Source of the DNA: Eukaryota sp. GEM-RC1
Lineage: Eukaryota
Length of the DNA stretch: 64,000 nt
Direction of reading: 5' to 3'
Assembly (NCBI GenBank): GCA_040285855.1
Contig: JAUFOQ010000010.1
Coordinates: forward strand, 310,001 to 374,000
Every line of letters begins with the position of its first letter. Within the stretch, counting starts at the first letter, position 1. The notes beneath the pieces are model-generated. The model had not been told where the DNA came from. It saw only the letters and a program-made list of their open reading frames with translations, and did no database searches. Below, one piece after another: positions 25,986 through 64,000 of this stretch. The position numbers and the translations under genes were made by a program.

Positions 25986-26160
25986 AAAATTTTCCTATAG
26001 AAAAATCATCATCAAAAATCTTGGAAATTGATCTTGAAATACAAAGATCAACAGATTGAAATCCATGAAGAAAAATAATTCCTGACAAGATAACCAACAG
26101 AGGAAGAATATAGTAAGTGTTCCAGATCAAAAATTTTAGGCGGAAATACTCAATCTTCCA

Positions 26161-33729: not shown

Positions 33730-34545
33730 TCTTTTATAAAACAGTAATTATAGAACTCAACTTTATCACATCCTTCGATGTTAACCATTGATGACCATTT
33801 ACTCAAATTTGGTCACCATCTAATTATTTACAAACAGTGGATGTCAAATACAGCTTTCGATTCACTTTTAGATGTCGTAGTACACTGAGTGAAAACTCAA
33901 AATTCTTTTCATGTGCTTAAATGTCCAATTTGGGGTATTGAAATAGATTAACATGTATCAATGTAATAAAGTAGTGGTGTTTGTGTGACGTCGATTTTTA
34001 AAAGACATTGTGTTAGTTTCACATAAAAACCACATCACAACTAACAACAATCAGTGTTGATCTAATTCTTTATAGTAACTTCCAAAATGGTACGAACAAA
34101 TCTTGATGATAAGCAAAGACGAATTGAATGTATAACCGAAAACCAAGAATTGACGAAATTCACAGATATGAGTATGCAACAGGATAAAGAAATTAGTGAA
34201 AGATCTTGATTATGTGTCCGCATCACAATTTAACAACAGTTTACACCGCACTTTGACATAAACAGGTCACAAACCTAGTTCGACAGAATCATGGATTATT
34301 CGGAATCAATTTGATTGGTGTTTGATCACATTGAGTACATATAGTTGCATCAGAATCTACAGCACATCTACTGCACTGACCCTACACGGCAAATCTTTTG
34401 GTATGAATAGTAAACACTGTTTCTTGTATTCTTTGATCAACTTTAGTTGACACAAACAACTGGTAACTATTATACATACTAAAAAAAATACGCATTGAAA
34501 GCAAATTGAAATTGGACTTGTTCAAAATGATTTGAAAATGTAAAG
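33730..34545 (+). repeat. Dispersed diverged duplication, copy 1 (copy 2 at ~63050-63873)
   Basis: Long shared blocks such as CATCACAACTAACAACAATCAGTGTTGATCTAATTCTTTATAGTAACTTCCAAAA and GTTCGACAGAATCATGGATTATTCGGAATCAATT. Confidence 0.85.
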
Positions 34546-38359: not shown

Positions 38360-41100
38360 CATCATCTTCTTGCACAAGTTGAACATTTCTACCATTAATT
38401 CTTTTCTTTTTTGGCAAAATCACTTTGAACATGGATTAAACAAAAATGGCCTTACCCCTTCTTCTTGGGAATCGAGTGTCATTCCAATCCCCAAAACCAA
38501 CAACGACTTCATTTGGATCACCATATTGGAGAGCTAATCTGCGGACCAAGTTTTGTTCACTTCGTTCTTTTCTTGAATATTGAGTCAGGTGTCTACGTCT
38601 AAAAAAATTTTCTTCATAAAGGCCTTCTGTTGCAGCAGGTATTTGTTGATTTGGTCCTTTCTTAGGTAGTTTCTTTGATGGTCCTGTCTTTTTATGTAAT
38701 CTTTCCGCAGTTACTTTTCCAGTTGTGGTTGATCTCATTAACACAGAAAACTTCATTGTTAACCATGTACCTTGAAAATTCTTCCAGTTTGCATGATTTT
38801 CTTCTTGGAGTATAAGAACTGTAGGAATCCATTCCACACACTGTTCTCAAACTCAGTTGAGTACCTTTGTAATCGTTCGCTTTCGGTCAATTTGACATTG
38901 TTTTTGTTACAACGCTTTCTTTCACGTTTTTTGAAATTTCGTTTTTCATTTCGTTCCTTTTTAGCTTTGTTTTCTTTCTGTGTCAATTCTTTTGGTACTG
39001 TGATGGTCGATTTTTTTCTTGGTTTCCATCCAGACTTGTTAAGATCTGCCATTCTCTTCCCAGTAGTGTATCGGAAAACCTTCCATTGGTCACACTTTTT
39101 CCACTTTACAAGTTGTGGGTTAGTACCTTGCTTCCAATCATTTAATTGTTTTTTTCATTTTTTCCAAACTTCCTCTTTTTTAGAAGACAATGGATCAATC
39201 TTTCGTTTTCTAACTAGGGTAACTGGTTTGGGCTCAATTTCATTCTCAACTGAAGAATCAATAGATTGTTCATTTGAAGCAAGATCAACTTCTAAAACAT
39301 TTTCACGAGCATTGGACATTCCATTTTTTATCAATTTTTTGTTTCTCCCCCTCGTCTTTTTACTTATTTAGGATTCTTCAACCTGATTTCTGCGATGATC
39401 TCAGGTCCGACAGCGGTTTCCAACTCATTGTTAATGAGTTCCAATAGCTCACTAATCGTGTGTGCGGCCTTGTCTACAGCGATCATTCTGTTAAAGCATC
39501 AACTTTAATTTTCTCACACGCCGCTTCCTCATCAGTTTTTAAACTGGCACAATACATGAGATCATGTTGGTTGGGGTCAACAGCAACAATTCTCTTAGAT
39601 TTTAAATTCAGTTCTTCAATTTCATCTTCACCTAATGAATCAGTATATCGTTCATTTGAAGCAAGATTAACTGCTGTAACATTTTCACGAGTATTTCCAT
39701 TTTCATAAAGTAAATCTTTCCTCATCATTAATAAACTACAACTTAAACCGTCTGACGAAATTGAAGTGTATTTAAAGTCATAGGATAATGACTCTGGAAT
39801 AGCATGTGGGTTTAAGGTTTTAAAATTGAATCCCAAATAAGTTTCGGTACTTCATTATAGTTATAGGGAAGATCCATACGAAATAATTCGTGGAACCATT
39901 GCGTATCGAACCTGATATGATTTGGAATTAATGACTTAGACAATGGGAAAGGATTGTTTGCTGTTACACCAGGACAATAATCTTCAAAAGAAGGTTCAAA
40001 TACGATGCACGACTTAAAAAGTATAATGGATCACTCTTTTCGGCATAGAAGATCGTTTTCTCCATATTTCCTTCAAAATAATTAAATAACTAATTGAAGA
40101 AGAGTATACTCAAGTGAGATTCCGGATTGGTTAAAACTGGATTGACATCATCAAAGTTAATTTTGAAAATTTCATCATTAATAATTAATTCTATACCTTC
40201 ATCAATCCTTTGACAGAGTTCTTGTCTTTGAGTTATGTCGGTATTAGCTTCCATTTTCTCTTTCTTTTGAGTCACCAAGTACTCATGGAAATGTTAACGT
40301 ATGTTTTTCTTATAATTTGTAATAATTTCGGTTGTAGCGTAACCAAGAGGCCAAGACAAATATAGTTCACTTGGAAACACGATCATGTCTTTACCAACCA
40401 TTTCAGTAGCAGTTTCTAACAGAGGGATGTAGTTTGATAGGAAGTGTTGGGCGAACTCCTTCTTTGTAGTTGTTTTAACATTAGAAATGATGCTGTTTAA
40501 AGAGTTTTCCACAATTTAATATGATCAGTACTGTTGAAAAATTGGTCATTTTTGGAATCCACATCATTCCAACAGTTGTCCCATTGGACCCAACTTAAAG
40601 TAACCTCCCAGTCTGGTAGTTCAAATTTGGTAGTTTGAATTTTAGTAAACAGGTCAAGTTCAGGTTCACCAGTTTGATTTTCATCAATGTCTTCATCTAA
40701 AATTTCAAATTTAATTGTACGATCGCAAACAAAATGAGGATCCGAATACATGCAATTCAGTTTCTTCTTCTAATTGTTGAGGCACAAACTCTTCACTTAA
40801 AACTTCTGTTTGTTCAGTGTCTGAAACTTCAGTGTCTGTTTCAATTTCTTCTTTAACAGATAAAATGTAATCAGTGGGATGTAGTATCCCTTTGACCTTG
40901 TCGAAAATTAAAGAGTTGTGAAATTTAGTTACGAAAAATTGTTTCAACAAATGTGTACCACGAACTCTGACTTGATGAGCTCTCTTAGCACAAGATTCAA
41001 TCCAATTCGCTTTAGTCTTTGATACAACATTATCTAGTCGTTTCCTTACCACCTTCAGTGGTGGTCGTTCTCTTAATTTTTGCTTCTTTTCATCGAAAAG
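38360..41100 (-). pseudogene. Fragmented Fanzor1-like (eukaryotic TnpB-derived) gene lacking a recognisable C-terminal zinc finger/RuvC-III
   Basis: Ordered motifs: YATTEIITNYKKNIR, FPLSKSLIPNHIRFDT (~39903-39950), SISSDGLSCSLL, RuvC-I-like RIVAVDPNQHDLMYC (~39550-39595), LYEENFFRRRHLTQYSRKERSEQNL, YGDPNEVVVGFGDW, possible RuvC-II NVQLVQE; many frameshifts. Confidence 0.72.
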
Positions 41101-43884: not shown

Positions 43885-45336
43885 ATGTCTCACTATCTCT
43901 GTGATATTTGTCATGAAATTCTCAAGAATCCGGTAACTACTTGGTGTGGCCACACCTTTTGTATGTCGGATTTGCAGGAGTGGCTTGTTTCTCATAACGG
44001 ATGTCCGATCTGTCGAGCTGAAGTGGACAAGTCAAGGCTGTGTCCTAACTACAAGTTGAAAGAAGCTGTTGAAGCCTTTGTTGCTGGTCAAGGTGAGACT
44101 ATTTGTTTTGAGTGTGATGAAGCTGCTGCCACTTGTTATTGCGCAGATTGTGACGTTGATTTCTGTGACAACTGTTTTAACCCTGCGCATCGCCCCAAGT
44201 TGCTACGATCTCATGTTGCTGTCCCCCTAAATAAGAAGCATGCCTACCTTGTTCCTAAGTGCCCCAGCCACAACATGAAGTCGTTAGAGTTGTTCTGCAC
44301 CTTCTGCTCCGTCGCCCTTTGCTCCACTTGTGCTTTCCTTGGTGATCATGACCAGCACAAAAAGAAGTTGCTTCCCTTTGACGAAGGTCGAACCTCTGTT
44401 GAAAAGAATATCAACTCTATAAACCAAGAATTGTCCGTTGCTATTGAAAAAATATCACAGTTAGCTGAAGCTGCTATTCAGCAAGCAACAAGTGGTTTTG
44501 TCCAACTCAAAGAAAGTCTGACTGTCCTGCTCCAAGAAACTATGTTAGACTCTGCTACCATTATGAATGACTTACAATCTGGGAAACCTGTCATGTTCAA
44601 GCCAAATATCAGCGAAAAATTCACTACCACCACTTCAACCCTTCTCAACAACCAATCTGATGTCATCTCCTCTTTAAATGAAGAACTGTTCTCCATCCAC
44701 TCCGATGCTTCTCGTCGTTTGACCTCTCTTTCCGTTGATTCGGAGTCTAGTGTTGCTTCTGCTAGGCTTCTAGAAGACCCTCCTTTACCAATCAAGTGCA
44801 TTGAAAGTGTCTGCCCTGTACAACAAGTTGAAGAGAAGAAACTTGTTATTGATTGGAGCAAGCTTAGCTCTAAGTTGAAGAGTTGTTATGATCAAATGGT
44901 GAGAAATGAGGTTTCTACGATCAATCTAGACAGCAACTCAATTGGTAATGAAGGCGCTATTGCAATTGCTGAAGCTTTGAAGGTGAATTCTTCACTTTCT
45001 ACGATCTATCTATATAACAACTCAATTGGTACTGAAGGCGCTATTGCAATTGCTGAAGCTTTGAAGGTGAATTCTTCACTTTCTACGATCTATCTATATA
45101 ACAACTCAATTGGTACTGAAGGCGCTATTGCAATTGCTGAAGCTTTGAAGGTGAATTCTTCACTTTCTACGATCAATCTAAATAACAACTCAATTGGTAC
45201 TGAAGGCGCTATTGCAATTGCTGAAGCTTTGAAGGTGAATTCTTCACTTTCTACGATCAGTCTATATAACAACTCAATCAACAGTCAAACACAACAGTCG
45301 TTAAAATCTCTACACCAGAACAGAGTGTATTTTTAG
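43885..45336 (+). CDS. TRIM-like protein: RING - B-box1 - B-box2 - coiled coil - RNI-type LRRs (4 full modules + cap); putative E3 ubiquitin ligase
   Basis: Intact 483-aa ORF from ATG 43885. RING CDIC..CGHTFC..D..CPIC; B-box1 CFEC..CADC..FC..C..H..H; B-box2 CPSH..FC..C..LC..C..H..H; heptad-like helical region; 28-aa STIxLxxNSIGxEGAIAIAEALKVNSSL repeats. Confidence 0.92.
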   Translation: MSHYLCDICHEILKNPVTTWCGHTFCMSDLQEWLVSHNGCPICRAEVDKSRLCPNYKLKEAVEAFVAGQGETICFECDEAAATCYCADCDVDFCDNCFNPAHRPKLLRSHVAVPLNKKHAYLVPKCPSHNMKSLELFCTFCSVALCSTCAFLGDHDQHKKKLLPFDEGRTSVEKNINSINQELSVAIEKISQLAEAAIQQATSGFVQLKESLTVLLQETMLDSATIMNDLQSGKPVMFKPNISEKFTTTTSTLLNNQSDVISSLNEELFSIHSDASRRLTSLSVDSESSVASARLLEDPPLPIKCIESVCPVQQVEEKKLVIDWSKLSSKLKSCYDQMVRNEVSTINLDSNSIGNEGAIAIAEALKVNSSLSTIYLYNNSIGTEGAIAIAEALKVNSSLSTIYLYNNSIGTEGAIAIAEALKVNSSLSTINLNNNSIGTEGAIAIAEALKVNSSLSTISLYNNSINSQTQQSLKSLHQNRVYF

Positions 45337-46222
45337 ACATGTTTTTCTTGGATATAAAGATCACATTTTTCAATCACAAATAATTTCTTGTCAGAAACAC
45401 CATTATTAAACGATGTATGTATAAAACACTTCAAAAATGATTTAGCTCAGAACAATCATTGTCCCGAACAAAACTCAGAAGTGACTCACCACAGATAATC
45501 AAATATCATGGCTGTTTAGCAGATGTTGATATACATATTTTAACTACTACTCTGGTGAGTAACACACATCATATTTACTCAGCTGGTGCTTTTGCGATTG
45601 TTTCCAATAACACCAGACATTTATTAGTATCTGAAATAGTGTTTATACTATATACTTACCAATATTTGGAATTGCCAACATTCAATCTCATTATTAACAC
45701 GACTATATTATCCTTTGAGAAGCTTCACTGTCATGATGCTTGGATTATTCTCAGTGATGATTCATATACGTGTTTTTGCATTTTTTCAGTAAATCTGACA
45801 GTGATAGACAAAGAATTACCAAAACTGTTTCATTGAATATTGCAGTCAATAGCAAGAACACAAATGGCGGCGTTGAATTTACGAAGACTCAGTGAAACTA
45901 TTTTGCTTTCTGCAGTTTTTACATAGGCAAGTAAAAGCTATTGAAATTAAAGAGTATGAATTTGTAATCTTTGTTAACTGATTGTTGAGAATTTATTCGC
46001 AAATTACAGATATTTTACCAGAAGAAAGAGTGTATATATAGACTTTTTAATACTGGTTAGAAGTAATATTATTATTTTGTCTTTGTGTCAAGACACAAAA
46101 CCGGTTTTTGTACATCTTAACTTATGTAACATATACTAGGTGACACAGCAGTGGATATGTATTCTGTAGACTATCTGAAAAACACAAAACGTAATTGATA
46201 AGGCTTTGAAGAAACACGCGGA

Positions 46223-47050
46223 GTCGTCTTTAAGCCAAAGATCGAAAAATTCACTTCCACCACTTCAACCCTTCTCAACAACCAATCTAATATCATCTCC
46301 TCTTTAAATGAAGAACTGTTCTCCATCCACTCCGATGCTTCTCGTCGTTTGACCTCTCTTTCCGTTGATTCGGAGTCTAGTGTTGCTTCTGCTAGGCTTC
46401 TAGAAGACCCTCCTTTACCAATCAAGTGCATTGAAAGTGTCTGCCCTGTACAACAAGTTGAAGAGAAGAAACTTGTTATTGATTGGAGCAAGCTTAGCTC
46501 TAAGTTGAAGAGTTGTTATGATCAAATGGTGAGAAATGAGGTTTCTACGATCTATCTAGACAGCAACTCAATTGGTACTGAAGGCGCTATTGCAATTGCT
46601 GAAGCTTTGAAGGTGAATTCTTCTCTTTCTACGATCTATCTAGATAACAACTCAATTGGTACTGAAGGCGCTATTGCAATTGTTGAAGCTTTGAAGGTGA
46701 ATTCTTCACTTTCTACGATCAATCTAGACAACAACTCAATTGGTAATGAAGGCGCTATTGCAATTGCTGAAGCTTTGAAGGTGAATTCTTCACTTTCTAC
46801 GATCAATCTAGACAACAACTCAATTGGTAATGAAGGCGCTATTGCAATTGCTGAAGCTTTGAAGGTGAATTCTTCACTTTCTACGATCAATCTATATAAC
46901 AACTCAATTGGTACTGAAGGCGCTATTGCAATTGCTGAAGCTTTGAAGGTGAATTCTTCACTTTCTACGATCAATCTACGTAACAACTCAATCAACAGTC
47001 AAACAATACAGTCGTTAAAATCTCTACACCAGAACAGAATGTCTTTTTAG
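46223..47050 (+). pseudogene. LRR cassette unit 2 (5 full modules + cap), no RING/B-box
   Basis: Homology to the TRIM gene starts at ~46223; in-frame stop just upstream; first in-frame ATG at 46526 (MVRNEV). Confidence 0.8.
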
Positions 47051-47937
47051 ACATGTTTTTCTTGGATATAAAGATCACATTTTTCAATCACAAATAATTT
47101 CTTGTCAGAAACACCATTATTAAACGATGTATGTATAAAACACTTCAAAAATGATTTAGCTCAGAACAATCATTGTCCCGAACAAAACTCAGAAGTGACT
47201 CACCACAGATAATCAAATATCATGGCTGTTTAGCAGATGTTGATATACATATTTTAACTACTACTCTGGTGAGTAACACACATCATATTTACTCAGCTGG
47301 TGCTTTTGCGATTGTTCCCAATAACACCAGACATTTATTAGTATCTGAAATAGTGTTTATACTATATACTTACCAATATTTGGAATTGCCAACATTCAAT
47401 CTCATTATTAACACGACTATATTATCCTTTGAGAAGCTTCACTGTCATGATGCTTGGATTATTCTCAGTGATGATTCATATACGTGTTTTTGCATTTTTT
47501 CAGTAAATCTGACAGTGATAGACAAAGAATTACCAAAACTGTTTCATTGAATATTGCAGTCAATAGCAAGAACACAAATGGCGGCGTTGAATTTACGAAG
47601 ACTCAGTGAAACTATTTTGCTTTCTGCAGTTTTTACATAGGCAAGTAAAAGCTATTGAAATTAAAGAGTATGAATTTGTAATCTTTGTTAACTGATTGTT
47701 GAGAATTTATTCGCAAATTACAGATATTTTACCAGAAGAAAGAGTGTATATATAGACTTTTTTAATACTGGTTAGAAGTAATATTATTATTTTGTCTTTG
47801 TGTCAAGACACAAAACCGGTTTTTGTACATCTTAACTTATGTAACATATACTAGGTGACACAGCAGTGGATATGTATTCTGTAGACTATCTGAAAAACAC
47901 AAAACGTAATTGATAAGGCTTTGAAGAAACACGCGGA

Positions 47938-48645
47938 GTCGTCTTTAAGCCAAAGATCGAAAAATTCACTTCCACCACTTCAACCCTTCTCAACAACCAA
48001 TCTAATATCATCTCCTCTTTAAATGAAGAACTGTTCTCCATCCACTCCGATGCTTCTCGTCGTTTGACCTCTCTTTCCGTTGATTCGGAGTCTAGTGTTG
48101 CTTCTGCTAGGCTTCTAGAAGACCCTCCTTTACCAATCAAGTGCATTGAAAGTGTCTGCCCTGTACAACAAGTTGAAGAGAAGAAACTTGTTATTGATTG
48201 GAGCAAGCTTAGCTCTAAGTTGAAGAGTTGTTATGATCAAATGGTGAGAAATGAGGTTTCTACGATCTATCTAGACAGCAACTCAATTGGTAATGAAGGC
48301 GCCATTGCAATTGCTGAAGCTTTGAAGGTGAATTCTTCACTTTCTACGATCAATCTAAATAACAACTCAATTGGTAATGAAGGCGCTATTGCAATTGCTG
48401 AAGCTTTGAAGGTGAATTCTTCACTTTCTACGATCTATCTATATAACAACTCAATTGGTACTGAAGGCGCTATTGCAATTGCTGAAGCTTTGAAGGTGAA
48501 TTCTTCACTTTCTATGATCGATCTACGTAACAACTCAATCAACAGTCAAACAATACAGTCGTTAAAATCTCTACACCAGAACAGAATGTCTTTTTTAGAC
48601 ATGTTTTTCTTGGATATAAAGATCACATTTTTCAATCACAAATAA
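47938..48645 (+). pseudogene. LRR cassette unit 3 (3 full modules + cap); an extra T at the stop gives read-through
   Basis: Same linker; first in-frame ATG 48241; T6 instead of T5 before AG at ~48591. Confidence 0.8.
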
Positions 48646-49484
48646 TTTCTTGTCAGAAACACCATTATTAAACGATGTATGTATAAAACACTTCAAAAAT
48701 GATTTAGCTCAGAACAATCATTGTCCCGAACAAAACTCAGAAGTGACTCACCACAGATAATCAAATATCATGGCTGTTTAGCAGATGTTGATATACATAT
48801 TTTAACTACTACTCTGGTGAGTAACACACATCATATTTACTCAGCTGGTGCTTTTGCGATTGTTCCCAATAACACCAGACATTTATTAGTATCTGAAATA
48901 GTGTTTATACTATATACTTACCAATATTTGGAATTGCCAACATTCAATCTCATTATTAACACGACTATATTATCCTTTGAGAAGCTTCACTGTCATGATG
49001 CTTGGATTATTCTCAGTGATGATTCATATACGTGTTTTTGCATTTTGTCAGTAAATCTGACAGTGATAGACAAAGAATTACCAAAACTGTTTCATTGAAT
49101 ATTGCAGTCAATAGCAAGAACACAAATGGCGGCGTTGAATTTACGAAGACTCAGTGAAACTATTTTGCTTTCTGCAGTTTTTACATAGGCAAGTAAAAGC
49201 TATTGAAATTAAAGAGTATGAATTTGTAATCTTTGTTAACTGATTGTTGAGAATTTATTCGCAAATTACAGATATTTTACCAGAAGAAAGAGTGTATATA
49301 TAGACTTTTTAATACTGGTTAGAAGTAATATTATTATTTTGTCTTTGTGTCAAGACACAAAACCGGTTTTTGTACATCTTAACTTATGTAACATATACTA
49401 GGTGACACAGCAGTGGATATGTATTCTGTAGACTATCTGAAAAACACAAAACGTAATTGATAAGGCTTTGAAGAAACACGCGGA

Positions 49485-50315
49485 GTCGTCTTTAAGCCAA
49501 AGATCAGCGAAAAATTCACTACCACCACTTCAACCCTTCTCAACAACCAATCTAATATCATCTCCTCTTTAAATGAAGAACTGTTCTCCATCCACTCCGA
49601 TGCTTCTCGTCGTTTGACCTCTCTTTCCGTTGATTCGGAGTCTAGTGTTGCTTCTGCTAGGCTTCTAGAAGACCCTCCTTTACCAATCAAGTGCATTGAA
49701 AGTGTCTGCCCTGTACAACAAGTTGAAGAGAAGAAACTTGTTATTGATTGGAGCAAGCTTAGCTCTAAGTTGAAGAGTTGTTATGATCAAATGGTGAGAA
49801 ATGAGGTTTCTACGATCAATCTCAATAACAACTCAATTGGTACTGAAGGCGCTATTGCAATTGCTGAAGCTTTGAAGGTGAATTCTTCACTTTCTACGAT
49901 CAATCTAAATAACAACTCAATTGGTACTGAAGGCGCTATTGCAATTGCTGAAGCTTTGAAGGTGAATTCTTCACTTTCTACGATCAATCTAAATAACAAC
50001 TCAATTGGTAATGAAGGCGCTATTGCAATTGCTGAAGCTTTGAAGGTGAATTCTTCACTTTCTAGAATCGATCTACGTAACAACTCAATTGGTACTGAAG
50101 GCGCTATTGCAATTGCTGAAGCTTTGAAGGTGAATTCTTCACTTTCTAGAATCGATCTACGTAACAACTCAATTGGTACTGAAGGCGCTATTGCAATTGC
50201 TGAAGCTTTGAAGGTGAATTCTTCACTTTCTACGATCAATCTAAATAACAACTCAATCAACAGTCAAACACAACAGTCGTTAAAATCTCTACACCAGAAC
50301 AGAGTGTATTTTTAG
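49485..50315 (+). pseudogene. LRR cassette unit 4 (5 full modules + cap)
   Basis: Same linker; first in-frame ATG 49791. Confidence 0.8.
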
Positions 50316-51205
50316 ACATGTTTTTCTTGGATATAAAGATCACATTTTTCAATCACAAATAATTTCTTGTCAGAAACACCATTATTAAACGATGTATGTA
50401 TAAAACACTTCAAAAATGATTTAGCTCAGAACAATCATTGTCCCGAACAAAACTCAGAAGTGACTCACCACAGATAATCAAATATCATGGCTGTTTAGCA
50501 GATGTTGAGATACATATTTTAACTACTACTCTGGTGAGTAACACACATCATATTTACTCAGCTGGTGCTTTTGCGATTGTTCCCAATAACACCAGACATT
50601 TATTAGTATCTGAAATAGTGTTTATACTATATACTTACCAATATTTGGAATTGCCAACATTCAATCTCATTATTAACACGACTATATTATCCTTTGAGAA
50701 GCTTCACTGTCAATATATGATGCTTGGATTATTCTCAGTGATGATTCATATACGTGTTTTTGCATTTTTTCAGTAAATCTGACAGTGATAGACAAAGAAT
50801 TACCAAAACTGTTTCATTGAATATTGCAGTCAATAGCAAGAACACAAATGGCGGCGTTGAATTTACGAAGACTCAGTGAAACTATTTTGCTTTCTGCAGT
50901 TTTTACATAGGCAAGTATAAGCTATTGAAATTAAAGAGTATGAATTTGTAATCTTTGTTAACTAATTGTTGAGAATTTATTCGCAAATTACAGATATTTT
51001 ACCAGAAGAAAGAGTGTATGTATAGACTTTTTTAATACTGGTTAAAAGTAATATTATGATTTTGTCTTTGTATCAACACACAAAACCGGTTTTTGTACAT
51101 CTTAACTTATGTAGCATATACTAGGTGACACAGCAGTGGATATGTATTCTGTAGACTATCTGAAAAGCACAAAACGTAATTGATAAGGCTTGAAGAAACA
51201 CGCGG

Positions 51206-52614
51206 AGTCGTCTTTAAGCCAAAGATCAGCGAAAAATTCACTACCACCACTTCAACCCTTCTCAACAACCAATCTAATATCATCTCCTCTTTAAATGAAG
51301 AACTGTTCTCCATCCACTCCGATGCTTCTCGTCGTTTGACCTCTCTTTCCGTTGATTCTTGCTTCTGCTAGGCTTCTAGAAGACCCTCCTTTACCAATCA
51401 AGTGCATTGAAAGTGTCTGCCCTGTACAACAAGTTGAAGAGAAGAAACTTGTTATTGATTGGAGCAAGCTTAGCTCTAAGTTGAAGAGTTGTTATGATCA
51501 AATGGTGAGAAATGAGGTTTCTACGATCAATCTAGACAGCAACTCAATTGGTAATGAAGGCGCTATTGCAATTGCTGAAGCTTTGAAGGTGAATTCTTCA
51601 CTTTCTACGATCAATCTAAATAACAACTCAATTGGTACTGAAGGCGCTATTGCAATTGCTGAAGCTTTGAAGGTGAATTCTTCACTTTCTACGATCTATC
51701 TAGATAACAACTCAATTGGTACTGAAGGCGCTTTTGCAATTGCTGAAGCTTTGAAGGTGAATTCTTCACTTTCTAGAATCGATCTACGTAACAACTCAAT
51801 TGGTACTGAAGGCGCTATTGCAATTGCTGAAGCTTTGAAGGTGAATTCTTCACTTTCTACGATCAATCTAAATAACAACTCAATTGGTAATGAAGGCGCT
51901 ATTGCAATTGCTCAAGCTTTGAAGGTGAATTCTTCACTTTCTACGATCAATCTAAATAACAACTCAATTGGTACTGAAGGCGCTATTGCAATTGCTGAAG
52001 CTTTGAAGGTGAATTCTTCACTTTCTACGATCTATCTAGATAACAACTCAATTGGTACTGAAGGCGCTATTGCAATTGCTGAAGCTTTGAAGGTGAATTC
52101 TTCACTTTCTAGAATCGATCTACGTAACAACTCAATTGGTACTGAAGGCGCTATTGCAATTGCTGAAGCTTTGAAGGTGAATTCTTCACTTTCTACGATC
52201 AATCTAAATAACAACTCAATTGGTAATGAAGGCGCTATTGCAATTGCTGAAGCTTTGAAGGTGAATTCTTCACTTTCTAGAATCGATCTACGTAACAACT
52301 CAATTGGTAATGAAGGCGCTATTGCAATTGCTGAAGCTTTGAAGGTGAATTCTTCACTTTCTACGATCTATCTATATAACAACTCAATTGGTACTGAAGG
52401 CGCTATTGCAATTGCTGAAGCTTTGAAGGTGAATTCTTCACTTTCTACGATCAATCTAAATAACAACTCAATTGGTAATGAAGGCGCTATTGCAATTGCT
52501 GAAGCTTTGAAGGTGAATTCTTCACTTTCTACGATCAATCTAAATAACAACTCAATCAACAGTCAAACACAACAGTCGTTAAAATCTCTACACCAGAACA
52601 GAGTGTATTTTTAG
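51206..52614 (+). pseudogene. LRR cassette unit 5 (12 full modules + cap); 11-bp deletion in the linker
   Basis: GATTC|TTGCTTC at ~51358 versus GATTCGGAGTCTAGTGTTGCTTC; first in-frame ATG 51502. Confidence 0.8.
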
Positions 52615-53507
52615 ACATGTTTTTCTTGGATATAAAGATCACATTTTTCAATCACAAATAATTTCTTGTCAGAAACACCATTATTAAACGATGTATGTAT
52701 AAAACACTTCAAAAATGATTTAGCTCAGAACAATCATTGTCCCGAACAAAACTCAGAAGTGACTCACCACAGATAATCAAATATCATGGCTGTTTAGCAG
52801 ATGTTGATATACATATTTTAACTACTACTCTGGTGAGTAACACACATCATATTTACTCAGCTGGTGCTTTTGCGATTGTTCCCAATAACACCAGACATTT
52901 ATTAGTATCTGAAATAGTGTTTATACTATATACTTACCAATATTTGGAATTGCCAACATTCAATCTCATTATTAACACGACTATATTATCCTTTGAGAAG
53001 CTTCACTGTCAATATATGATGCTTGGATTATTCTCAGTGATGATTCATATACGTGTTTTTTGCATTTTGTCAGTAAATCTGACAGTGATAGACAAAGAAT
53101 TACCAAAACTGTTTTATTGAATATTGCAGTCAATAGCAAAAACACAAATGACGGCGTTAAATTTACGAAGACTCAGTGAAACTATTCTGCTTTTTGCAGT
53201 TTTTACATAGGCAAGTATAAGCTATGGAAATTAAAGAGTATGAATTTGTAATCTTTGTTAACTGATTGTTGAGAATTTATTCGCAAATTACAGATATTTT
53301 ACCAGAAGAAAGAGTGTATATATAGACTTTTTTAATACTGGTTAGAAGTAATATTATTATTTTGTCTTTGTGTCAAGACACAAAACCGGTTTTTGTACAT
53401 CTTAACTTATGTAACATATACTAGGTGACACAGCAGTGGATATGTATTCTGTAGACTATCTGAAAAACACAAAACGTAATTGATAAGGCTTTGAAGAAAC
53501 ACGCGGA

Positions 53508-54590
53508 GTCGTCTTTAAGCCAAAGATCAGCGAAAAATTCACTACCACCACTTCAACCCTTCTCAACAACCAATCTAATATCATCTCCTCTTTAAATGAA
53601 GAACTGTTCTCCATCCACTCCGATGCTTCTCGTCGTTTGACCTCTCTTTCCGTTGATTCGGAGTCTAGTGTTGCTTCTGCTAGGCTTCTAGAAGACCCTC
53701 CTTTACCAATCAAGTGCATTGAAAGTGTCTGCCCTGTACAACAAGTTGAAGAGAAGAAACTTGTTATTGATTGGAGCAAGCTTAGCTCTAAGTTGAAGAG
53801 TTGTTATGATCAAATGGTGAGAAATGAGGTTTCTACGATCTATCTCAATAACAACTCAATTGGTAATGAAGGCGCTATTGCAATTGCTGAAGCTTTGAAG
53901 GTGAATTCTTCTCTTTCTACGATCGGTCTATCTAACAACTCAATTGGTAATGAAGGCGCTATTGCAATTGCTGAAGCTTTGAAGGTGAATTCTTCTCTTT
54001 CTACGATCTATCTAGATAACAACTCAATTGGTACTGAAGGCGCTATTGCAATTGCCGAAGCTTTGAAGGTGAATTCTTCTCTTTCTACGATCTATCTAGA
54101 TAACAACTCAATTGGTACTGAAGGCGCTATTGCAATTGCCGAAGCTTTGAAGGTGAATTCTTCACTTTCTACGATCGGTCTATCTAACAACTCAATTGGT
54201 AATGAAGGCGCTATTGCAATTGCTGAAGCTTTGAAGGTGAATTCTTCTCTTTCTACGATCGGTCTATCTAACAACTCAATTGGTACTGAAGGCGCTATTG
54301 CAATTGCTGAAGCTTTGAAGGTGAATTCTTCTCTTTCTACGATCCGTCTATCTGACAACTCAATTGGTAATGAAGGCGCTATTGCAATTGCCGAAGCTTT
54401 GAAGGTGAATTCTTCACTTTCTACGATCTATCTAGATAACAACTCAATTGGTACTGAAGGCGCTATTGCAATTGCTGAAGCTTTGAAGGTGAATTCTTCA
54501 CTTTCTACGATCTATCTATATAACAACTCAATCAAGAGTCAAACACAACAGTCGTTAAAATCTCTACACCAGAACAGAATGTATTTTTAG
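53508..54590 (+). pseudogene. LRR cassette unit 6 (8 full modules + cap)
   Basis: Same linker; first in-frame ATG 53814; carries IGLSN and IRLSD module variants. Confidence 0.8.
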
Positions 54591-55072
54591 ACATGTTTTT
54601 CTTGGATATAAAGATCACATTTTTCAATCACAAATAATTTCTTGTCAGAAACACCATTATTAAACGATGTATGTATAAAACACTTCAAAAATGATTTAGC
54701 TCAGAACAATCATTATCCCGAACAAAACTCAGAAGTGACTCACCACAAATAATCAAATATCATGGATGTTTAGCAGATGTTGAGATACAGATTTTAACTA
54801 CTACTCTGGTGAATAACACACGTCATATTTACTCAGCTGGTGCTTTTGCGATTGTTCTCAACAACACCAGACATTTATTAGCATCTGAAATAGTGTTTAT
54901 ACTATATACTTACCAATATTTGGAATTGCCAACATTCAATCTCATTATTAACACGACTATATTATCCTTTGAGAAGCTTCACTGTCAATATATGATGCTT
55001 GGATTATTCTCAGTGATGATTCATATACGTGTTTTTGCATTTTTTCAGTAAATCTGACAGTGATAGACAAAG

Positions 55073-55171
55073 CTGTTGTAAGGTTTGATAGCGACGGGTG
55101 TTGTTTTAATGATATCAAATTCTAGTTGTTTGATCTATTACATTTATAATAAAACTATTAATTAAAAAAAA
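55073..55171 (+). mobile_element. 99-bp 5'-truncated family C non-LTR insertion with A8 tail and 17-bp TSD
   Basis: Matches the reverse complement of ~22660-22750; TSD GACAGTGATAGACAAAG at 55056-55072 and 55172-55188; absent from six other spacers. Confidence 0.92.
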
Positions 55172-55592
55172 GACAGTGATAGACAAAGAATTACCAAAAT
55201 TGTTTTATTGAATATTGCAGTCAGAAGCAAAAACACAAATGGCGCCGTTAAATTTACGAAGACTCAGTGAAACTATTTTTCTTTTTGCAGTTTTTACATA
55301 GGCAAGTATAAGCTATAGAAATTAAAGAGTATGAATTTGTAATCTTTGTTAACTAATTGTTGAGAATTTATTCGCAAATTGCAGATATTTTTCCAGAAAA
55401 AAGAGTGTATAGACCTTTTAATACTGGTTAGAAGTAATATTATCATTTTGTCTTTGTGTCGACACACAAAACCGGTTTTTGTACATCTTAACTTATGTAA
55501 CATATACTAGATGACACAGCATTGGATATGTATTCTGTAGACTGTCTGAAAAACACAAAACGTAATTGATAAGGCTTGAAGAAACACGCAGA

Positions 55593-56921
55593 GTCATCTT
55601 TAAGCCAAAGATCAGTGAAGACTTCACCACTTCAACCCTTCTCAACAACCAATCTAATATCATCTCCTCTTTAAATGAAGAACTGTTCTCCATCCACTCC
55701 GATGCTTCTCGTCGTTTGACCTCTCTTTCCGTTGATTCGGAGTCTAGTGTTGCTTCTGCTAGGCTTCTAGAAGACCCTCCTTTACCAATCAAGTGCATTG
55801 AAAGTGTCTGCCCTGTACAACAAGTTGAAGAGAAGAAACTTGTTATTGATTGGAGCAAGCTTAGCTCTAAGTTGAAGAGTTGTTATGATCAAATGGTGAG
55901 AAATGAGGTTTCTACGATCAATCTAGACAGCAACTCAATTGGTAATGAAGGCGCTATTGCAATTGCTGAAGCTTTGAAGGTGAATTCTTCACTTTCTACG
56001 ATCAATCTAAATAACAACTCAATTGGTACTGAAGGCGCTATTGCAATTGCTGAAGCTTTGAAGGTGAATTCTTCACTTTCTACGATCTATCTAGATAACA
56101 ACTCAATTGGTACTGAAGGCGCTATTGCAATTGCTGAAGCTTTGAAGGTGAATTCTTCACTTTCTACGATCAATCTAAATAACAACTCAATTGGTAATGA
56201 AGGCGCTATTGCAATTGCTGAAGCTTTGAAGGTGAATTCTTCACTTTCTACGATCAATCTATATAACAACTCAATTGGTAATGAAGGCGCTATTGCAATT
56301 GCTGAAGCTTTGAAGGTGAATTCTTCACTTTCTACGATCGATCTACGTAACAACTCAATTGGTACTGAAGGCGCTATTGCAATTGCTGAAGCTTTGAAGG
56401 TGAATTCTTCACTTTCTACGATCAATCTAAATAACAACTCAATTGGTAATGAAGGCGCTATTGCAATTGCTGAAGCTTTGAAGGTGAATTCTTCACTTTC
56501 TACGATCAATCTAAATAACAACTCAATTGGTCCTGAAGGAGCTATTGCAATTGCTGAAGCTTTGAAGGTGAATTCTTCACTTTCTACGATCAATCTATAT
56601 AACAACTCAATTGGTAATGAAGGCGCTATTGCAATTGCTGAAGCTTTGAAGGTGAATTCTTCACTTTCTACGATCAATCTAAATAACAACTCAATTGGTA
56701 ATGAAGGCGCTATTGCAATTGCTGAAGCTTTGAAGGTGAATTCTTCACTTTCTACGATCAATCTAAATAACAACTCAATTGGTCCTGAAGGAGCTATTGC
56801 AATTGCTGAAGCTTTGAAGGTGAATTCTTCACTTTCTACGATCTATCTATATAACAACTCAATCAAGAGTCAAACACAACAGTCGTTAAAATCTCTACAC
56901 CAGAACAGAATGTATTTTTAG
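55593..56921 (+). pseudogene. LRR cassette unit 7 (11 full modules + cap)
   Basis: Same linker with an in-frame 6-bp deletion; first in-frame ATG 55893; carries GPEG module variants. Confidence 0.8.
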
Positions 56922-57403
56922 ACATGTTTTTCTTGGATATAAAGATCACATTTTTCAATCACAAATAATTTCTTGTCAGAAACACCATTATTAAACGATG
57001 TATGTATAAAACACTTCAAAAATGATTTAGCTCAGAACAATCATTATCCCGAACAAAACTCAGAAGTGACTCACCACAAATAATCAAATATCATGGATGT
57101 TTAGCAGATGTTGAGATACAGATTTTAACTACTACTCTGGTGAATAACACACGTCATATTTACTCAGCTGGTGCTTTTGCGATTGTTCTCAACAACACCA
57201 GACATTTATTAGCATCTGAAATAGTGTTTATACTATATACTTACCAATATTTGGAATTGCCAACATTCAATCTCATTATTAACACGACTATATTATCCTT
57301 TGAGAAGCTTCACTGTCAATATATGATGCTTGGATTATTCTCAGTGATGATTCATATACGTGTTTTTGCATTTTTTCAGTAAATCTGACAGTGATAGACA
57401 AAG

Positions 57404-57502
57404 CTGTTGTAAGGTTTGATAGCGACGGGTGTTGTTTTAATGATATCAAATTCTAGTTGTTTGATCTATTACATTTATAATAAAACTATTAATTAAAAAA
57501 AA
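57404..57502 (+). mobile_element. Duplicate of the 99-bp family C insertion
   Basis: Same sequence and same TSD (57387-57403, 57503-57519) as 55073-55171. Confidence 0.92.
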
Positions 57503-57922
57503 GACAGTGATAGACAAAGAATTACCAAAATTGTTTTATTGAATATTGCAGTCAGAAGCAAAAACACAAATGGCGCCGTTAAATTTACGAAGACTCAGTG
57601 AAACTATTTTTCTTTTTGCAGTTTTTACATAGGCAAGTATAAGCTATAGAAATTAAAGAGTATGAATTTGTAATCTTTGTTAACTAATTGTTGAGAATTT
57701 ATTCGCAAATTGCAGATATTTTTCCAGAAAAAGAGTGTATAGACCTTTTAATACTGGTTAGAAGTAATATTATCATTTTGTCTTTGTGTCGACACACAAA
57801 ACCGGTTTTTGTACATCTTAACTTATGTAACATATACTAGATGACACAGCATTGGATATGTATTCTGTAGACTGTCTGAAAAACACAAAACGTAATTGAT
57901 AAGGCTTGAAGAAACACGCAGA

Positions 57923-58578
57923 GTCATCTTTAAGCCAAAGATCAGTGAAGACTTCACCACTTCAACCTTTCTCAACAACCAATCTAATATCATCTCCTCT
58001 TTAAATGAAGAACTGTTCTCCATCCACCCGATGCTTCTCGTCGTTTGACCTCTCTTTCCGTTGATTCGGAGTCTAGTGTTGCTTCTGCTAGGCTTCTAGA
58101 AGACCCTCCTTTACCAATCAAGTGCATTGAAAGTGTCTGCCCTGTACAACAAGTTGAAGAGAAGAAACTTGTTATTGATTGGAGCAAGCTTAGCTCTAAG
58201 TTGAAGAGTTGTTATGATCAAATGGTGAGAAATGAGGTTTCTACGATCAATCTAGACAGCAACTCAATTGGTAATGAAGGCGCTATTGCAATTGCTGAAG
58301 CTTTGAAGGTGAATTCTTCACTTTCTACGATCAATCTATATAACAACTCAATTGGTACTGAAGGCGCTATTGCAATTGCTGAAGCTTTGAAGGTGAATTC
58401 TTCACTTTCTACGATCGATCTACGTAACAACTCAATTGGTACTGAAGGCGCTATTGCAATTGCTGAAGCTTTGAAGGTGAATTCTTCACTTTCTACGATC
58501 TCTCTATATAACAACTCAATCAAGAGTCAAACACAACAGTCGTTAAAATCTCTACACCAGAACAGAATGTATTTTTAG
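57923..58578 (+). pseudogene. LRR cassette unit 8 (3 full modules + cap); 1-bp deletion in the linker
   Basis: CATCCACCCGATG at ~58021 versus CATCCACTCCGATG; first in-frame ATG 58222. Confidence 0.8.
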
Positions 58579-59469
58579 ACATGTTTTTCTTGGATATAAA
58601 GATCACATTTTTCAATCACAAATAATTTCTTATCAGAAACACCATTATTAAACGATGTATGTATAAAACACTTCAAAAATGATTTAGCTCAGAACAATCA
58701 TTGTCCCGAACAAAACTCAGAAGTGACTCACCACAGATAATCAAATATCATGGCTGTTTAGCAGATGTTGATATACATATTTTAACTACTACTCTGGTGA
58801 GTAACACACATCATATTTACTCAGCTGGTGCTTTTGCGATTGTTCCCAATAACACCAGACATTTATTAGTATCTGAAATAGTGTTTATACTATATACTTA
58901 CCAATATTTGGAATTGCCAACATTCAATCTCATTATTAACACGACTATATTATCCTTTGAGAAGCTTCACTGTCAATATATGATGCTTGGATTATTCTCA
59001 GTGATGATTCATATACGTGTTTTTGCATTTTTTCTGTAAATCTGACAGTGATAGACAAAGAATTACCAAAACTGTTTCATTGAATATTGCAGTCAATAGC
59101 AAGAACACAAATGGCGGCGTTGAATTTACGAAGACTCAGTGAAACTATTTTGCTTTCTGCAGTTTTTACATAGGCAAGTAAAAGCTATTGAAATTAAAGA
59201 GTATGAATTTGTAATCTTTGTTAACTGATTGTTGAGAATTTATTCGCAAATTACAGATATTTTACCAGAAGAAAGAGTGTATATATAGACTTTTTAATAC
59301 TGGTTAGAAGTAATATTATTATTTTGTCTTTGTGTCAAGACACAAAACCGGTTTTTGTACATCTTAACTTATGTAACATATACTAGGTGACACAGCAGTG
59401 GATATGTATTCTGTAGACTATCTGAAAAACACAAAACGTAATTGATAAGGCTTTGAAGAAACACGCGGA

Positions 59470-61224
59470 GTCGTCTTTAAGCCAAAGATCAGCGAAAAAT
59501 TCACTACCACCACTTCAACCCTTCTCAACAACTAATCTAATATCATCTCCTCTTTAAATGAAGAACTGTTCTCCATCCACTCCGATGCTTCTCGTCGTTT
59601 GACCTCTCTTTCCGTTGATTCGGAGTCTAGTGTTGCTTCTGCTAGGCTTCTAGAAGACCCTCCTTTACCAATCAAGTGCATTGAAAGTGTCTGCCCTGTA
59701 CAACAAGTTGAAGAGAAGAAACTTGTTATTGATTGGAGCAAGCTTAGCTCTAAGTTGAAGAGTTGTTATGATCAAATGGTGAGAAATGAGGTTTCTACGA
59801 TCAATCTAGACAGCAACTCAATTGGTAATGAAGGCGCTATTGCAATTGCTGAAGCTTTGAAGGTGAATTCTTCACTTTCTACGATCAATCTATATAACAA
59901 CTCAATTGGTAATGAAGGCGCTATTGCAATTGCTGAAGCTTTGAAGGTGAATTCTTCTCTTTCTACGATCTATCTAGATAACAACTCAATTGGTACTGAA
60001 GGCGCTATTGCAATTGCTGAAGCTTTGAAGGTGAATTCTTCTCTTTCTACGATCTATCTAGATAACAACTCAATTGGTACTGAAGGCGCTATTGCAATTG
60101 CCGAAGCTTTGAAGGTGAATTCTTCACTTTCTACGATCGGTCTATCTAACAACTCAATTGGTAATGAAGGCGCTATTGCAATTGCTGAAGCTTTGAAGGT
60201 GAATTCTTCTCTTTCTACGATCTATCTAGATAACAACTCAATTGGTACTGAAGGCGCTATTGCAATTGCTGAAGCTTTGAAGGTGAATTCTTCACTTTCT
60301 ACGATCAATCTAAATAACAACTCAATTGGTAATGAAGGCGCTATTGCAATTGCTGAAGCTTTGAAGGTGAATTCTTCACTTTCTACGATCAATCTATATA
60401 ACAACTCAATTGGTAATGAAGGCGCTATTGCAATTGCTGAAGCTTTGAAGGTGAATTCTTCACTTTCTAGAATCGATCTACGTAAAAACTCAATTGGTAA
60501 TGAAGGCGCTATTGCAATTGCTGAAGCTTTGAAGGTGAATTCTTCACTTTCTACGATCAATCTAAATAACAACTCAATTGGTAATGAAGGCGCTATTGCA
60601 ATTGCTGAAGCTTTGAAGGTGAATTCTTCACTTTCTACGATCAATCTAAATAACAACTCAATTGGTACTGAAGGCGCTATTGCAATTGCTGAAGCTTTGA
60701 AGGTGAATTCTTCACTTTCTACGATCTATCTAGATAACAACTCAATTGGTACTGAAGGCGCTATTGCAATTGCTGAAGCTTTGAAGGTGAATTCTTCACT
60801 TTCTACGATCAATCTAAATAACAACTCAATTGGTAATGAAGGCGCTATTGCAATTGCTGAAGCTTTGAAGGTGAATTCTTCACTTTCTACGATCAATCTA
60901 TATAACAACTCAATTGGTAATGAAGGCGCTATTGCAATTGCTGAAGCTTTGAAGGTGAATTCTTCACTTTCTAGAATCGATCTACGTAAAAACTCAATTG
61001 GTAATGAAGGCGCTATTGCAATTGCTGAAGCTTTGAAGGTGAATTCTTCACTTTCTACGATCAATCTAAATAACAACTCAATTGGTAATGAAGGCGCTAT
61101 TGCAATTGCTGAAGCTTTGAAGGTGAATTCGTCTGTTTCTAAGATTGATCTAGATAACAACTCAATCAACAGTCAAACACAACAGTCATTAAAATCACTG
61201 CACAAGAATAGAATTCGTTTTTAA
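59470..61224 (+). pseudogene. LRR cassette unit 9 (16 full modules + divergent cap); in-frame TAA in the linker
   Basis: CAA>TAA at 59533-59535; first in-frame ATG 59776; cap SVSKIDLDNN...HKNRIRF differs from other units. Confidence 0.8.
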
Positions 61225-61789: not shown

Positions 61790-62035
61790 GCTAGAATTTC
61801 TGATTTCTATCTACATAAAAACTCAATTGGTTCTGAAGCTGCTATTGCATTTGGTGAAGTTTTGAAGGTGAATTCGACTGTTTCTCATATTTATCTATTT
61901 AACAACTCAATTGGTCCCGAAGGCGCTACTGCAATTGCTGAAGCTTTAAAGGTGAATTCGTCTGTTTCTCGTGTCTATCTATATAACAACTCAATTAACA
62001 GTCAAACACAATCAACCGAAGGGACGTGTGTGTAA
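61790..62035 (+). pseudogene. Diverged orphan LRR cassette (about 2 modules + partial cap) of the same 28-aa type
   Basis: FYLHKNSIGSEAAIAFGEVLKVNST, IYLFNNSIGPEGATAIAEALKVNSS, VYLYNNSINSQTQ; followed by a diverged spacer fragment. Confidence 0.7.
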
Positions 62036-62149
62036 TCAACGGTCATGATTATCAACACGACTGCATTTTTTCTCAAGAAATAGCTTCATTGTCCTTGAGT
62101 TGAGTGATGCTTTGGTTATTCTCAGTGATATATTCTATGTTCAGTATGC

Positions 62150-62768
62150 TTGTAATCTTTCTGATGACGATTGTTTCATATTGATCAGTGCACTTCACAA
62201 CAATAATTTAAAAAAATTGGATCTCAGTCGCAATTCGTTTGGTCTCAACCGTCTTTTATCCATTTATGAGTTGGTTTCAACAAACAAATTTCCACCCACT
62301 GTTGAAGTGGATCCTCATTCTGTTGATGATGAAAATGATCTATTCTCATTTTCCCCAAAAAAGTTGACTCATTTTACTACAGAAGATGTCTCAGTTCTAC
62401 GCCGTTTTTTAGGTTCATCTATAATCAGAGATCTTTCTCTTAATAATTGTAGATTTACTGATGAAGCATTCACTAGATTTTGTGAAGCTGTCAGACTCAA
62501 TCACATGGCGTTGTATTCTATTGACCTCAGTCACTGTGCACTCACAGACGACAACGTCTCCCAATTTGTTAGATTATTGCAGTTCACTTCAAATCTTAGT
62601 GTTATTGATCTTAGTAGCAATTCAATTTGTAATGAAGGTGCCATTGTATTGGCTGAAATGTTAAAGGTAAATACAAATATCACTAGTATTTACCTTCGGC
62701 GAAACTCTATTGATACTGAAACCCAACTCTTCATCCAAAAAGTTTCAAATGGTCGTATAAGATGTTAA
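62150..62768 (+). pseudogene. C-terminal fragment of a composite-repeat LRR gene
   Basis: YELVSTNKF..VEVDPHSVD...FSFSP, LNNCRFTDEA, LSSNSICNEGAIVLAEMLKVN, SNGRIRC end as in the 14759 gene; lacks its own N-terminus. Confidence 0.7.
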
Positions 62769-63049
62769 CTTAAATCTTATGACATTTTCGTAAATTTATT
62801 AGTACACATAATAATACTTTACCGTAAATTCTGTTTTTTCACAAAAATCTGTTCACACATACGATTTGTTAAATTTTGATTTTTCAACACACAAAGGGAA
62901 CCTGATGTGTTATAAGTCCTATGAAAGTAATTCTTGGTAAATATTCAAATGTGTTGTGTTGGAGTAAAATATCTGCAGTTCCGTTTTCCCGACATCATTA
63001 CTGTAAAACAAAAGAATTAAACTCATTACCGCTCCTGTGATTTATTAAC

Positions 63050-63873
63050 CTTCTTTAAAACAGTAATTTTAAAACTCAATTTTATCACATAGTTCAATGC
63101 ATTTGTTGACCATTGATGACCATTATCATTTACTCAATATTGGTCAATATCTTATTATTTACAAAATCGAAACATAAATTAAGATTGGAATTCACTTTTA
63201 GATGTCGTAGTAACACTGAGTGATAACTGAAAATTCGTCGCATTTGATGAAATGTCCAATCTTTTCCGGATTAACATGTATCAATGTAATAAAGTGGTGG
63301 TGTTTGTGAGACGGCGATTGTTAATCGACATTGTGTTAGTTTCACATAAAAAACACATCACAACTAACAACAATCAGTGTTGATCTAATTCTTTATAGTA
63401 ACTTCCAAAATAGTACGAACAAATCTTGATGATAAGCAAAGACGAATTGAATGTATAAACGAAAACCAAGAATTGACGAAATTCACAGATATGGATATAC
63501 AACAGGATAAAGAAATTAGTGAAAGATCTTGATGATATGTCCGAATCATAATTTACCAACAATCTACACCACACTGTGAAATAAACAGGACACAAACCTA
63601 GTTCGACAGAATCATGGATTATTCGGAATCAATTCAATTGGTGTTTGATCACATTCAGTACATATACCAATTTTTCAACTTTTGTCATTTTACAAGAATT
63701 GCGTCAGAATCTACAGCACATTTACAGCACTGATCCTACATGGCAAATCTTTTGGTATGAATAGTAAACTATTTCAATCAATCCAATTTCAAAACAACTA
63801 TTATACATCCCAAAACAAAATACGCGTTGAAAGCAAAATAAAATTGGATTTGTTCAAAATGATTTGAAAATGT
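63050..63873 (+). repeat. Dispersed diverged duplication, copy 2 (copy 1 at ~33730-34545)
   Basis: Direct sequence match to 33730-34545 with substitutions and indels. Confidence 0.85.
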
Positions 63874-64000
63874 AATTATAAATTGTCTGATAACTCTGAA
63901 ACAATGTCAAAAACTGACAAATCGAAATTTAATTTATGAACGAAACACTATGAAAATGACTACAAAATCAGATGTTAGACTCTGTAATAAACATTCTGAT

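Follow-up and report, generated by a model that had tools for sequence, protein, structure and literature searches.

An intact TRIM-like gene is followed by eight headless units

The window analyzed here, a stretch of 64,000 nucleotides of contig JAUFOQ010000010.1 from Eukaryota sp. GEM-RC1, carries an intact gene, designated u0, in which a RING finger, two B-boxes and a coiled coil precede an array of leucine-rich repeats (LRRs), followed on the same strand by eight copies that lack this head. GEM-RC1 appears in PMC11316075 under the name Skoliomonas sp. GEM-RC; it is a free-living metamonad whose long-read assembly is 48% repetitive. This arrangement of one complete gene (43885-45336) plus eight headless units had been proposed in an initial annotation of the sequence and was confirmed by our analysis, as were the module counts of the nine arrays, which are 5, 6, 4, 6, 13, 9, 12, 4 and 17 and add up to 76 with the nine capping modules included (Table 1). 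The modules, each of 28 aa (84 bp), run without interruption, and all nine arrays differ from each other.

The RING/B-box/coiled-coil head gave a single match in the 64-kb window by blastn and tblastn, so that the head is unique at this scale, as annotated, but not in the gene family, complete paralogues being encoded by GEM-RC1. All eight downstream units share one start point, corresponding to head residue ~236, and open with a linker of 320-331 bp that is 95-98% identical to that of the head gene, in agreement with the near-identical linker of the initial annotation. Three of the eight cassettes have lost the linker frame, one through a stop codon and the others through deletions of 11 bp and 1 bp; in all eight, an in-frame ATG lies six codons ahead of the LRRs. 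Units are separated by spacers of ~885 or ~1000 bp that differ by up to 4%, with 30-35 differences per ~885 sites between types A and B. The type-A spacer consists of the 3' flank of u0 and ~430 bp that match nothing else in the window; an origin of the spacer as a decayed head or coding gene was considered and rejected, as there was a single marginal tblastn match in the rest of the window (E 0.04) and one among the fetched proteins at E 0.39. The two B spacers carry an inserted element of 116 bp with an A-run at its end and a 17-bp target-site duplication, dispersed copies of which are found at 22647-22751 (92%) and 14909-14974 (88%).

Table 1. Features of the u0 locus (positions are those of the window; residues are those of the u0 product).
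Feature	Position	Strand	Description
Intact gene u0	43885..45336	+	open 483-codon frame, 483 aa
u0 RING	residues 6-43		Asp at sixth zinc-ligand position
u0 first B-box	residues 74-114		
u0 second B-box	residues 124-160		
u0 long helices	residues 163-281		
u0 disordered stretch	residues 282-319		
u0 N-cap helix	residues 329-339		followed by 5 LRR modules from 44914
Linker common to all cassettes	44590..44913	+	last ~250 bp without substitution in nine units
Type-A spacer	45337..46223	.	~885 bp, recurs between all units
Headless unit 1	46224..47050	+	6 modules; internal ATG 46526
Headless unit 2	47939..48645	+	4 modules; internal ATG 48241
Headless unit 3	49486..50315	+	6 modules; internal ATG 49791
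Headless unit 4	51208..52614	+	13 modules; 11-bp linker deletion; internal ATG 51502
Headless unit 5	53509..54590	+	9 modules; internal ATG 53814
Insertion copy 1	55056..55188	+	in type-B spacer
Headless unit 6	55594..56921	+	12 modules; B-type linker start; internal ATG 55893
Insertion copy 2	57387..57519	+	duplicated along with its unit
Headless unit 7	57924..58578	+	4 modules; 1-bp linker deletion; internal ATG 58222
Headless unit 8	59471..61224	+	17 modules; linker stop; internal ATG 59776
Older open-frame relic	61790..62020	+	~2.5 LRR modules, partial cap; 81-84% identical to array

The relic that closes the table lies beyond the interval delimited in the initial annotation (43885..61224).

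The product of u0 is a predicted ubiquitin-ligase receptor

The TRIM-like anatomy ascribed to u0 was borne out by Pfam, with matches to a RING (PF13923, 36.2 bits against a cut-off of 27), to B-boxes in two stretches (PF00643, 44.4 bits; PF22586 at residues 74-111) and to LRR_6 (46.2 bits), whereas neither a NACHT nor an NB-ARC domain was found in u0 by the same means. The RING ligands are C6, C9, C21, H23, C26, D29, C40 and C43, Asp replacing the sixth Cys, and residues I8, W33, P41 and R44, which we take to be those that bind the ubiquitin-conjugating enzyme (E2), are present. The coiled coil after the B-boxes corresponds to predicted helices 163-220, 224-231 and 244-281, modeled at values of the predicted local distance difference test (pLDDT) of 57-74. 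Residues 321-483 were modeled with pLDDT values of 83-95 as 28-residue strand-helix repeats of the ribonuclease-inhibitor type; the best matches to this fold were NOD2 (5irm), 3un9 and NLRP1 (5y3s), and ribonuclease-inhibitor LRRs were matched too. The gene is already complete, with an open frame and capped LRRs. Judged by its sequence, u0 is an RBCC (RING, B-box, coiled-coil)/TRIM protein with an Asp variant in its RING, and we predict that it acts as a ubiquitin-ligase receptor in the cytosol.

Diversity is packed into five codons of the LRR module

Among the 67 internal modules, 83% of the nucleotide diversity falls in codons 2, 4, 6, 7 and 12 of 28. Pairwise non-synonymous and synonymous differences (pN/pS) were 0.237/0.198 at codons 2, 4, 6 and 7, 0.243/0 at codon 12, and 0.002/0.030 at the remaining framework codons. 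In LRR proteins, alternating positions of the strand face the concave, ligand-binding side; in u0, module positions 2, 4 and 6 alternate with invariant Ile/Leu along the predicted strands 345-349, 373-377 and 401-405. The model therefore supports a concentration of the variation at the predicted LRR binding face. Because a neutral tandem repeat would spread its diversity evenly, selection has shaped the modules at some stage, and the null hypothesis of the initial annotation, neutral unequal crossover, does not in its purely neutral form account for the packing of diversity into five codons, although crossover remains the likely mechanism. Framework changes present in several copies were all synonymous (4/4), and singleton framework changes in the cassettes comprised three non-synonymous and one synonymous substitution; from these sequences, the older framework variation looks filtered and the recent variation unselected.

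The head and the cassettes draw on a common stock of modules. All four internal modules of the head have base-identical twins in the cassettes, and 13 of the 17 binding-face types are confined to cassettes. Only three of the 17 types recur exactly in eight paralogues.

Sequence exchange within the locus

An alignment of the eight cassettes contains 1209 columns, in which the longest substitution-free run (260 columns) stands directly before the LRRs, a length reached in seven of 20,000 shuffles; the invariance extends to the head over the final ~250 columns. The number of differences expected in the invariant linker is ~9.7 (P ~6e-5). The spacers, in turn, are mosaic, as 36 of 741 pairs among 39 informative sites fail the four-gamete test, which requires at least three recombinations. 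As two neighboring spacers hold the same insertion with its 17-bp target duplication, units have been copied whole. The two B spacers match perfectly (1001 of 1001 aligned bases), in-register internal duplications lie inside the arrays (416 bp within unit 8), and units 6 and 8 share a run of 404 bp. Nine of nine units carry C305 and S333, where seven of eight paralogues have S and N; likewise, 66 of 67 modules in the window end in Leu, versus Val at 40 of 45 paralogue junctions.

Unit 8 departs from this uniformity. Its last module and cap show 18 differences in 102 positions, against 2-7 in units 1 and 3-7, and its 3' flank is identical at 242 of 315, so that the near-identical cap and 3' flank of the initial annotation do not extend to this unit. 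Behind 16 modules of local type, its end carries the Val and HKNR residues typical of other paralogues. To judge from these residues, the last module, cap and 3' flank of unit 8 derive from an older, diverged paralogue, onto which head-type sequence has been laid.

The proposal that constant flanks permit exchange is upheld to the extent that real exchange has taken place through the linker and the LRRs, but the direction that can be read is from head-type sequence to cassette; modules common to head and cassettes cannot be oriented as to the direction of transfer. The geometry described in the initial annotation holds, in that any crossover that contracts the array would leave the head joined to LRRs from a cassette. 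No inverted repeat of at least 8 bp was found at the junction (46151-46330).

Paralogues and relatives

The seven closest proteins in a first search all belong to GEM-RC1. Its annotated proteins comprise complete RING/B-box/LRR members other than u0, at least four in number (P0001, P0011, P0002 and P0004; 70-81% identity), a head-only model (P0010), a protein with another tail (P0003), and fragments with differing start residues (P0005, P0006, P0007, P0012, P0013 and P0024); the comparison was made on proteins as annotated, and some fragments may be broken gene models. P0005 matches 119 of 124 residues of u0 and P0024 56 of 59 (95-96%). P0001 and P0011 are identical over residues 1-300, yet their arrays differ, with 9 and 11 modules.

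A search with the head across 1.84 billion representatives returned further RING/B-box proteins, of which ten were looked up, six being from GEM-RC1 and four from TZLM1-RC. A pattern scan found an LRR array in one of 147 further head relatives, itself from GEM-RC1, and the LRR-tailed form therefore looks lineage-restricted. Similarity to animal TRIM proteins was only 25-29%, with frog TRIM-like matches at 25-28% identity (E 4e-7 and 7e-5). Look-alikes in the atlas scored 0.92 and 0.91 for RING/B-box clusters and 0.86-0.87 for B-box-plus-LRR clusters, and are given as leads only. A search for longer fused forms produced one distant octopus match, which is weak evidence.

Three side observations concern these relatives. 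The head-only model P0010 ends near residue 232, at most ~5 residues from the point where all eight cassettes begin (46224), which may reflect chance, a break hotspot or a gene-model artefact. In unit 2 an extra T at the stop gives a 16-codon read-through (48588-48645), and paralogue P0011 has a similar 16-residue tail past the usual stop; either this is a shared real variant or both carry the same homopolymer error. Skoliomonads also have an expanded RING/B-box/coiled-coil family (P0017-P0027), several tails of which look SPRY-like by eye; no Pfam match to SPRY was obtained at E 0.5 for the four tails tested.

A probable reservoir of binding-face variants, with ordinary recombination as the proposed mechanism

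The explanation that we favor, with a little better than an even chance of being right in our estimate, is that u0 encodes a TRIM-like receptor that evolves fast, its repeats changing in concert with the adjacent headless units through ordinary unequal crossover and conversion, the units likely being an unprogrammed reservoir of binding-face variants for the intact gene. The locus would have started from a complete gene A beside an old headless paralogue B, the remnant of which would be the diverged right end. Misaligned crossovers in the linker or LRRs would duplicate the block from the A cap through the spacer to the B linker and so build the array, while unequal crossover and conversion would overwrite B with A-type sequence, a step for which the mosaicism is observed and the mechanism presumed. 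Conversion tracts may spread outward from the repeats and homogenize the flanks, and misalignment by multiples of 84 bp would alter the number of modules. Reciprocal contracting crossovers or conversions would put cassette modules on the head and alter its binding; at the first unit, the reciprocal product of a crossover would join the head to a cassette-derived array, deleting the DNA between them, and for this reason a reservoir function needs no special machinery. Such return flow would fit P0001 and P0011, with their identical residues 1-300 and different arrays. The LRR face would then pick a target, probably from a virus, bacterium or mobile element, the RING would ubiquitinate it, and selection on expressed copies would hold the framework fixed and the face diverse. 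A role as ligase receptor for foreign proteins is suggested by TRIM biology (PMC5758549) and by the pattern of variation. Most likely, unequal crossover is itself the mechanism, acting on repeats already diversified by selection, and the locus, although better than neutral, mainly reflects ordinary recombination on a diversified receptor family.

Several points weigh against this explanation. The RING of u0 is poorly modeled (pLDDT ~30-37) and has Asp at its sixth ligand position, and ligase activity, target and expression are presumed. At codons 2, 4, 6 and 7 of the face, the raw pN/pS ratio is only ~1.2. If only silent sites were free to vary, 2.4 differences would be expected in the invariant linker (P ~0.09), so that selection on a coding linker stays compatible with its invariance. 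Flow from cassette back to head was not observed, the sole readable direction being that seen in unit 8. Frameshifts are absent from the 71 cassette modules, but with 1.6 indels expected this is not significant (P(0) = 0.20), for which reason intact LRR frames were rejected as proof of selection. Finally, the array is known from one assembly.

The initial annotation had gone further and likened the locus to lamprey receptors and antigenic-variation loci. In a dedicated system of the vlsE or msg-I kind, the headless units would be kept as silent donors, and their transfer to the head within a clonal population would be frequent or regulated. We consider such a dedicated system unlikely. It would account for a contiguous same-strand array behind one complete gene, for the ~250-bp invariant block, which could serve as a junction element, for the face types held only in cassettes, and for linker breaks in three of eight cassettes with none inside their 71 modules, a contrast that is weakened by the non-significant intactness of the frames. 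The head gene, though, is complete on its own, and GEM-RC1 holds both complete paralogues (P0001, P0011, P0002, P0004) and fragments (P0005, P0024); because several complete paralogues exist, the family has no single expression site. Paralogue fragments also begin at many different residues, singleton framework changes in cassettes are non-synonymous in three cases of four, as in unselected DNA, no specialized signal such as an inverted repeat was found at the junction, the readable exchange runs into the cassettes, and each cassette, having its own in-frame ATG, may be expressed. These findings do not support that part of the annotation. An intracellular, cassette-fed immune receptor, composed of one TRIM-like head, a library of 71 silent LRR modules and a 250-bp junction block, is accordingly improbable; were it real, ligase specificity would differ among cells of one clone, and a free-living anaerobic protist would possess a unicellular, cytosolic, recombination-run counterpart of the lamprey receptors.

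The internal ATG raises the possibility, which we hold to be doubtful, that the units are expressed as stand-alone LRR proteins with a decoy, sensor or inhibitor role alongside the full ligase. In all eight units this codon opens a frame of 118-482 aa, and the three linker breaks all lie upstream of it (P ~0.02-0.08), but it is simply Met338 of u0, its product would be without the N-cap helix 329-339, and short upstream ATG frames occur in the linker. Six products of the window, u0 and five of the eight internal-ATG products, were looked up in the protein collection and none was present, which tells weakly against expression since u0 is likewise absent there. It is equally doubtful that the array is a dead end, a recent neutral expansion of a broken copy that receives sequence from the live gene and returns nothing useful. 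The visible overwriting has that direction, the singleton changes look neutral, decayed LRR genes and mobile elements crowd the window, and the genome is repetitive to the extent given above (PMC11316075). Against it, the 13 face types absent from the head include several that are many bases apart with framework codons unchanged, which indicates that donors carried them earlier or elsewhere, and the crossovers that expand an array have reciprocal products that alter the head.

An assembly artefact, whether from alleles or dispersed copies joined end to end or from short-read polishing that scrambled or homogenized near-identical units, appears very unlikely. Mis-assembly of such repeats has been reported both from short reads and for R9 homopolymers (PMC12222747), and the two identical B spacers would suit such an origin; the consistent multi-site haplotypes, the shared insertion with its target-site duplication, the private indels and the diverged terminal unit speak for real copies, and polishing should have evened out the spacers along with the linkers. 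Alternative splicing of the head to any cassette as last exon is barely credible and was rejected, the motif scan giving no support. By eye, head codon 236 offers a GT and the cassette start an AG, the joining of which would keep the frame, and P0010 ends near the same residue. The candidate donor, however, is far from consensus and was missed by the scan, the only branch-point-like motif lies ~240 bp upstream of the AG and leads into closed frames, the head's own frame has no interruption, and in three cassettes a break lies downstream of the AG.

Genomic surroundings and novelty

Many long, partly broken LRR-like genes of another family occupy 2636-5955, 11906-14756, 16649-18475, 26140-31292, 33035-33466 and 62049-62765, some with a degenerate N-terminal Cys cluster, and the region looks like an LRR-gene nursery. 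A 1-kb stretch is present in two copies of 79% identity, 62921-63875 and 33607-34543, one to each side of the array. About 2.8 kb upstream of the head, broken frames lie on the minus strand (38400-41100); their motifs resemble those of a Fanzor/TnpB-type RuvC nuclease, although Pfam gave no match and the label is unconfirmed. The plus strand at 2-1960 encodes the pol end of a long terminal repeat retrotransposon (RT_RNaseH, Integrase_H2C2, rve). Related fragments at 2011-2430 (plus strand) and at 9662-10983, 20888-21691 and 23403-23999 (minus strand) are, from their motifs, what we take to be 3' parts of a non-LTR retroelement with a restriction-like endonuclease; Pfam returned no match on 9662-10402, and 2055-2419 is 93-95% identical to two other places.

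Neither this locus nor a cassette layout of RBCC-LRR type was described in the literature searched, and the word "leucine" occurs zero times in the main text of the genome report (PMC11316075). Within that literature, two things are new, namely the combination of RBCC and LRR parts in a metamonad and the headless reservoir standing in tandem immediately behind it. For the recognition of viruses and intracellular bacteria by free-living protists, a TRIM-like head with NLR-type LRRs, diversity packed at the predicted face and an adjacent reservoir provide a concrete candidate in a cultured lineage. Even without a program, one broken paralogue and ordinary recombination can give rise to a layout of expression site plus cassettes.

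Comparison with known systems

Lamprey variable lymphocyte receptors (VLRs) are built from LRR modules that vary on the concave face, with donor modules beside a germline gene that is incomplete and is assembled in lymphocytes. The present locus resembles them in its predicted concave-face variation and in having donors beside the gene, but here the gene is complete and the donors are whole 3' halves rather than single modules. With the animal TRIM/RBCC E3 ligases and Dictyostelium DdTRIM, as described in PMC5758549, u0 shares a RING followed by B-boxes and a coiled coil, all of them ahead of a variable C-terminal domain for substrate binding, which in our case is a ribonuclease-inhibitor-type LRR array, unlike theirs. 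The Tetrahymena LRR genes with 90-bp exons are likewise young protist arrays, expanded by unequal crossing over near retroelements (PMC6564038); their exons are separated by introns, whereas the 84-bp units found here are uninterrupted and attached to a TRIM-like head.

As in vlsE and msg-I, contiguous headless copies share junction sequence with a complete gene; the single expression site of those systems has no equivalent here, given P0001, P0011, P0002 and P0004. [quoted passage not shown] Our family differs in its several complete genes and its predicted cytosolic product. Borrelia vlsE is also a complete gene beside a contiguous cassette array with segmental mosaicism, but vls is arranged head-to-head with inverted repeats, not head-to-tail as here, and transfer is reported as unidirectional into the expression site, opposite to the direction readable here (PMC11499132).

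The working mode most like that of this locus is found in the HNWD/NWD NLR family of Podospora anserina (het-d, het-e), in which repeats of variable number undergo concerted evolution, around four residues of each repeat, located on the interaction surface, are hypervariable, and pseudogenes keep intact repeats through exchange (PMC1805685). High repeat identity with a few hypervariable surface codons is common to both, and concerted evolution takes in non-functional copies, here within this locus. The u0 family is not a member, as it combines LRRs with a RING/B-box/coiled-coil head instead of WD40 repeats with NACHT, and its eight headless units stand in tandem behind a live gene, whereas the Podospora family, in that source, occupies separate loci.

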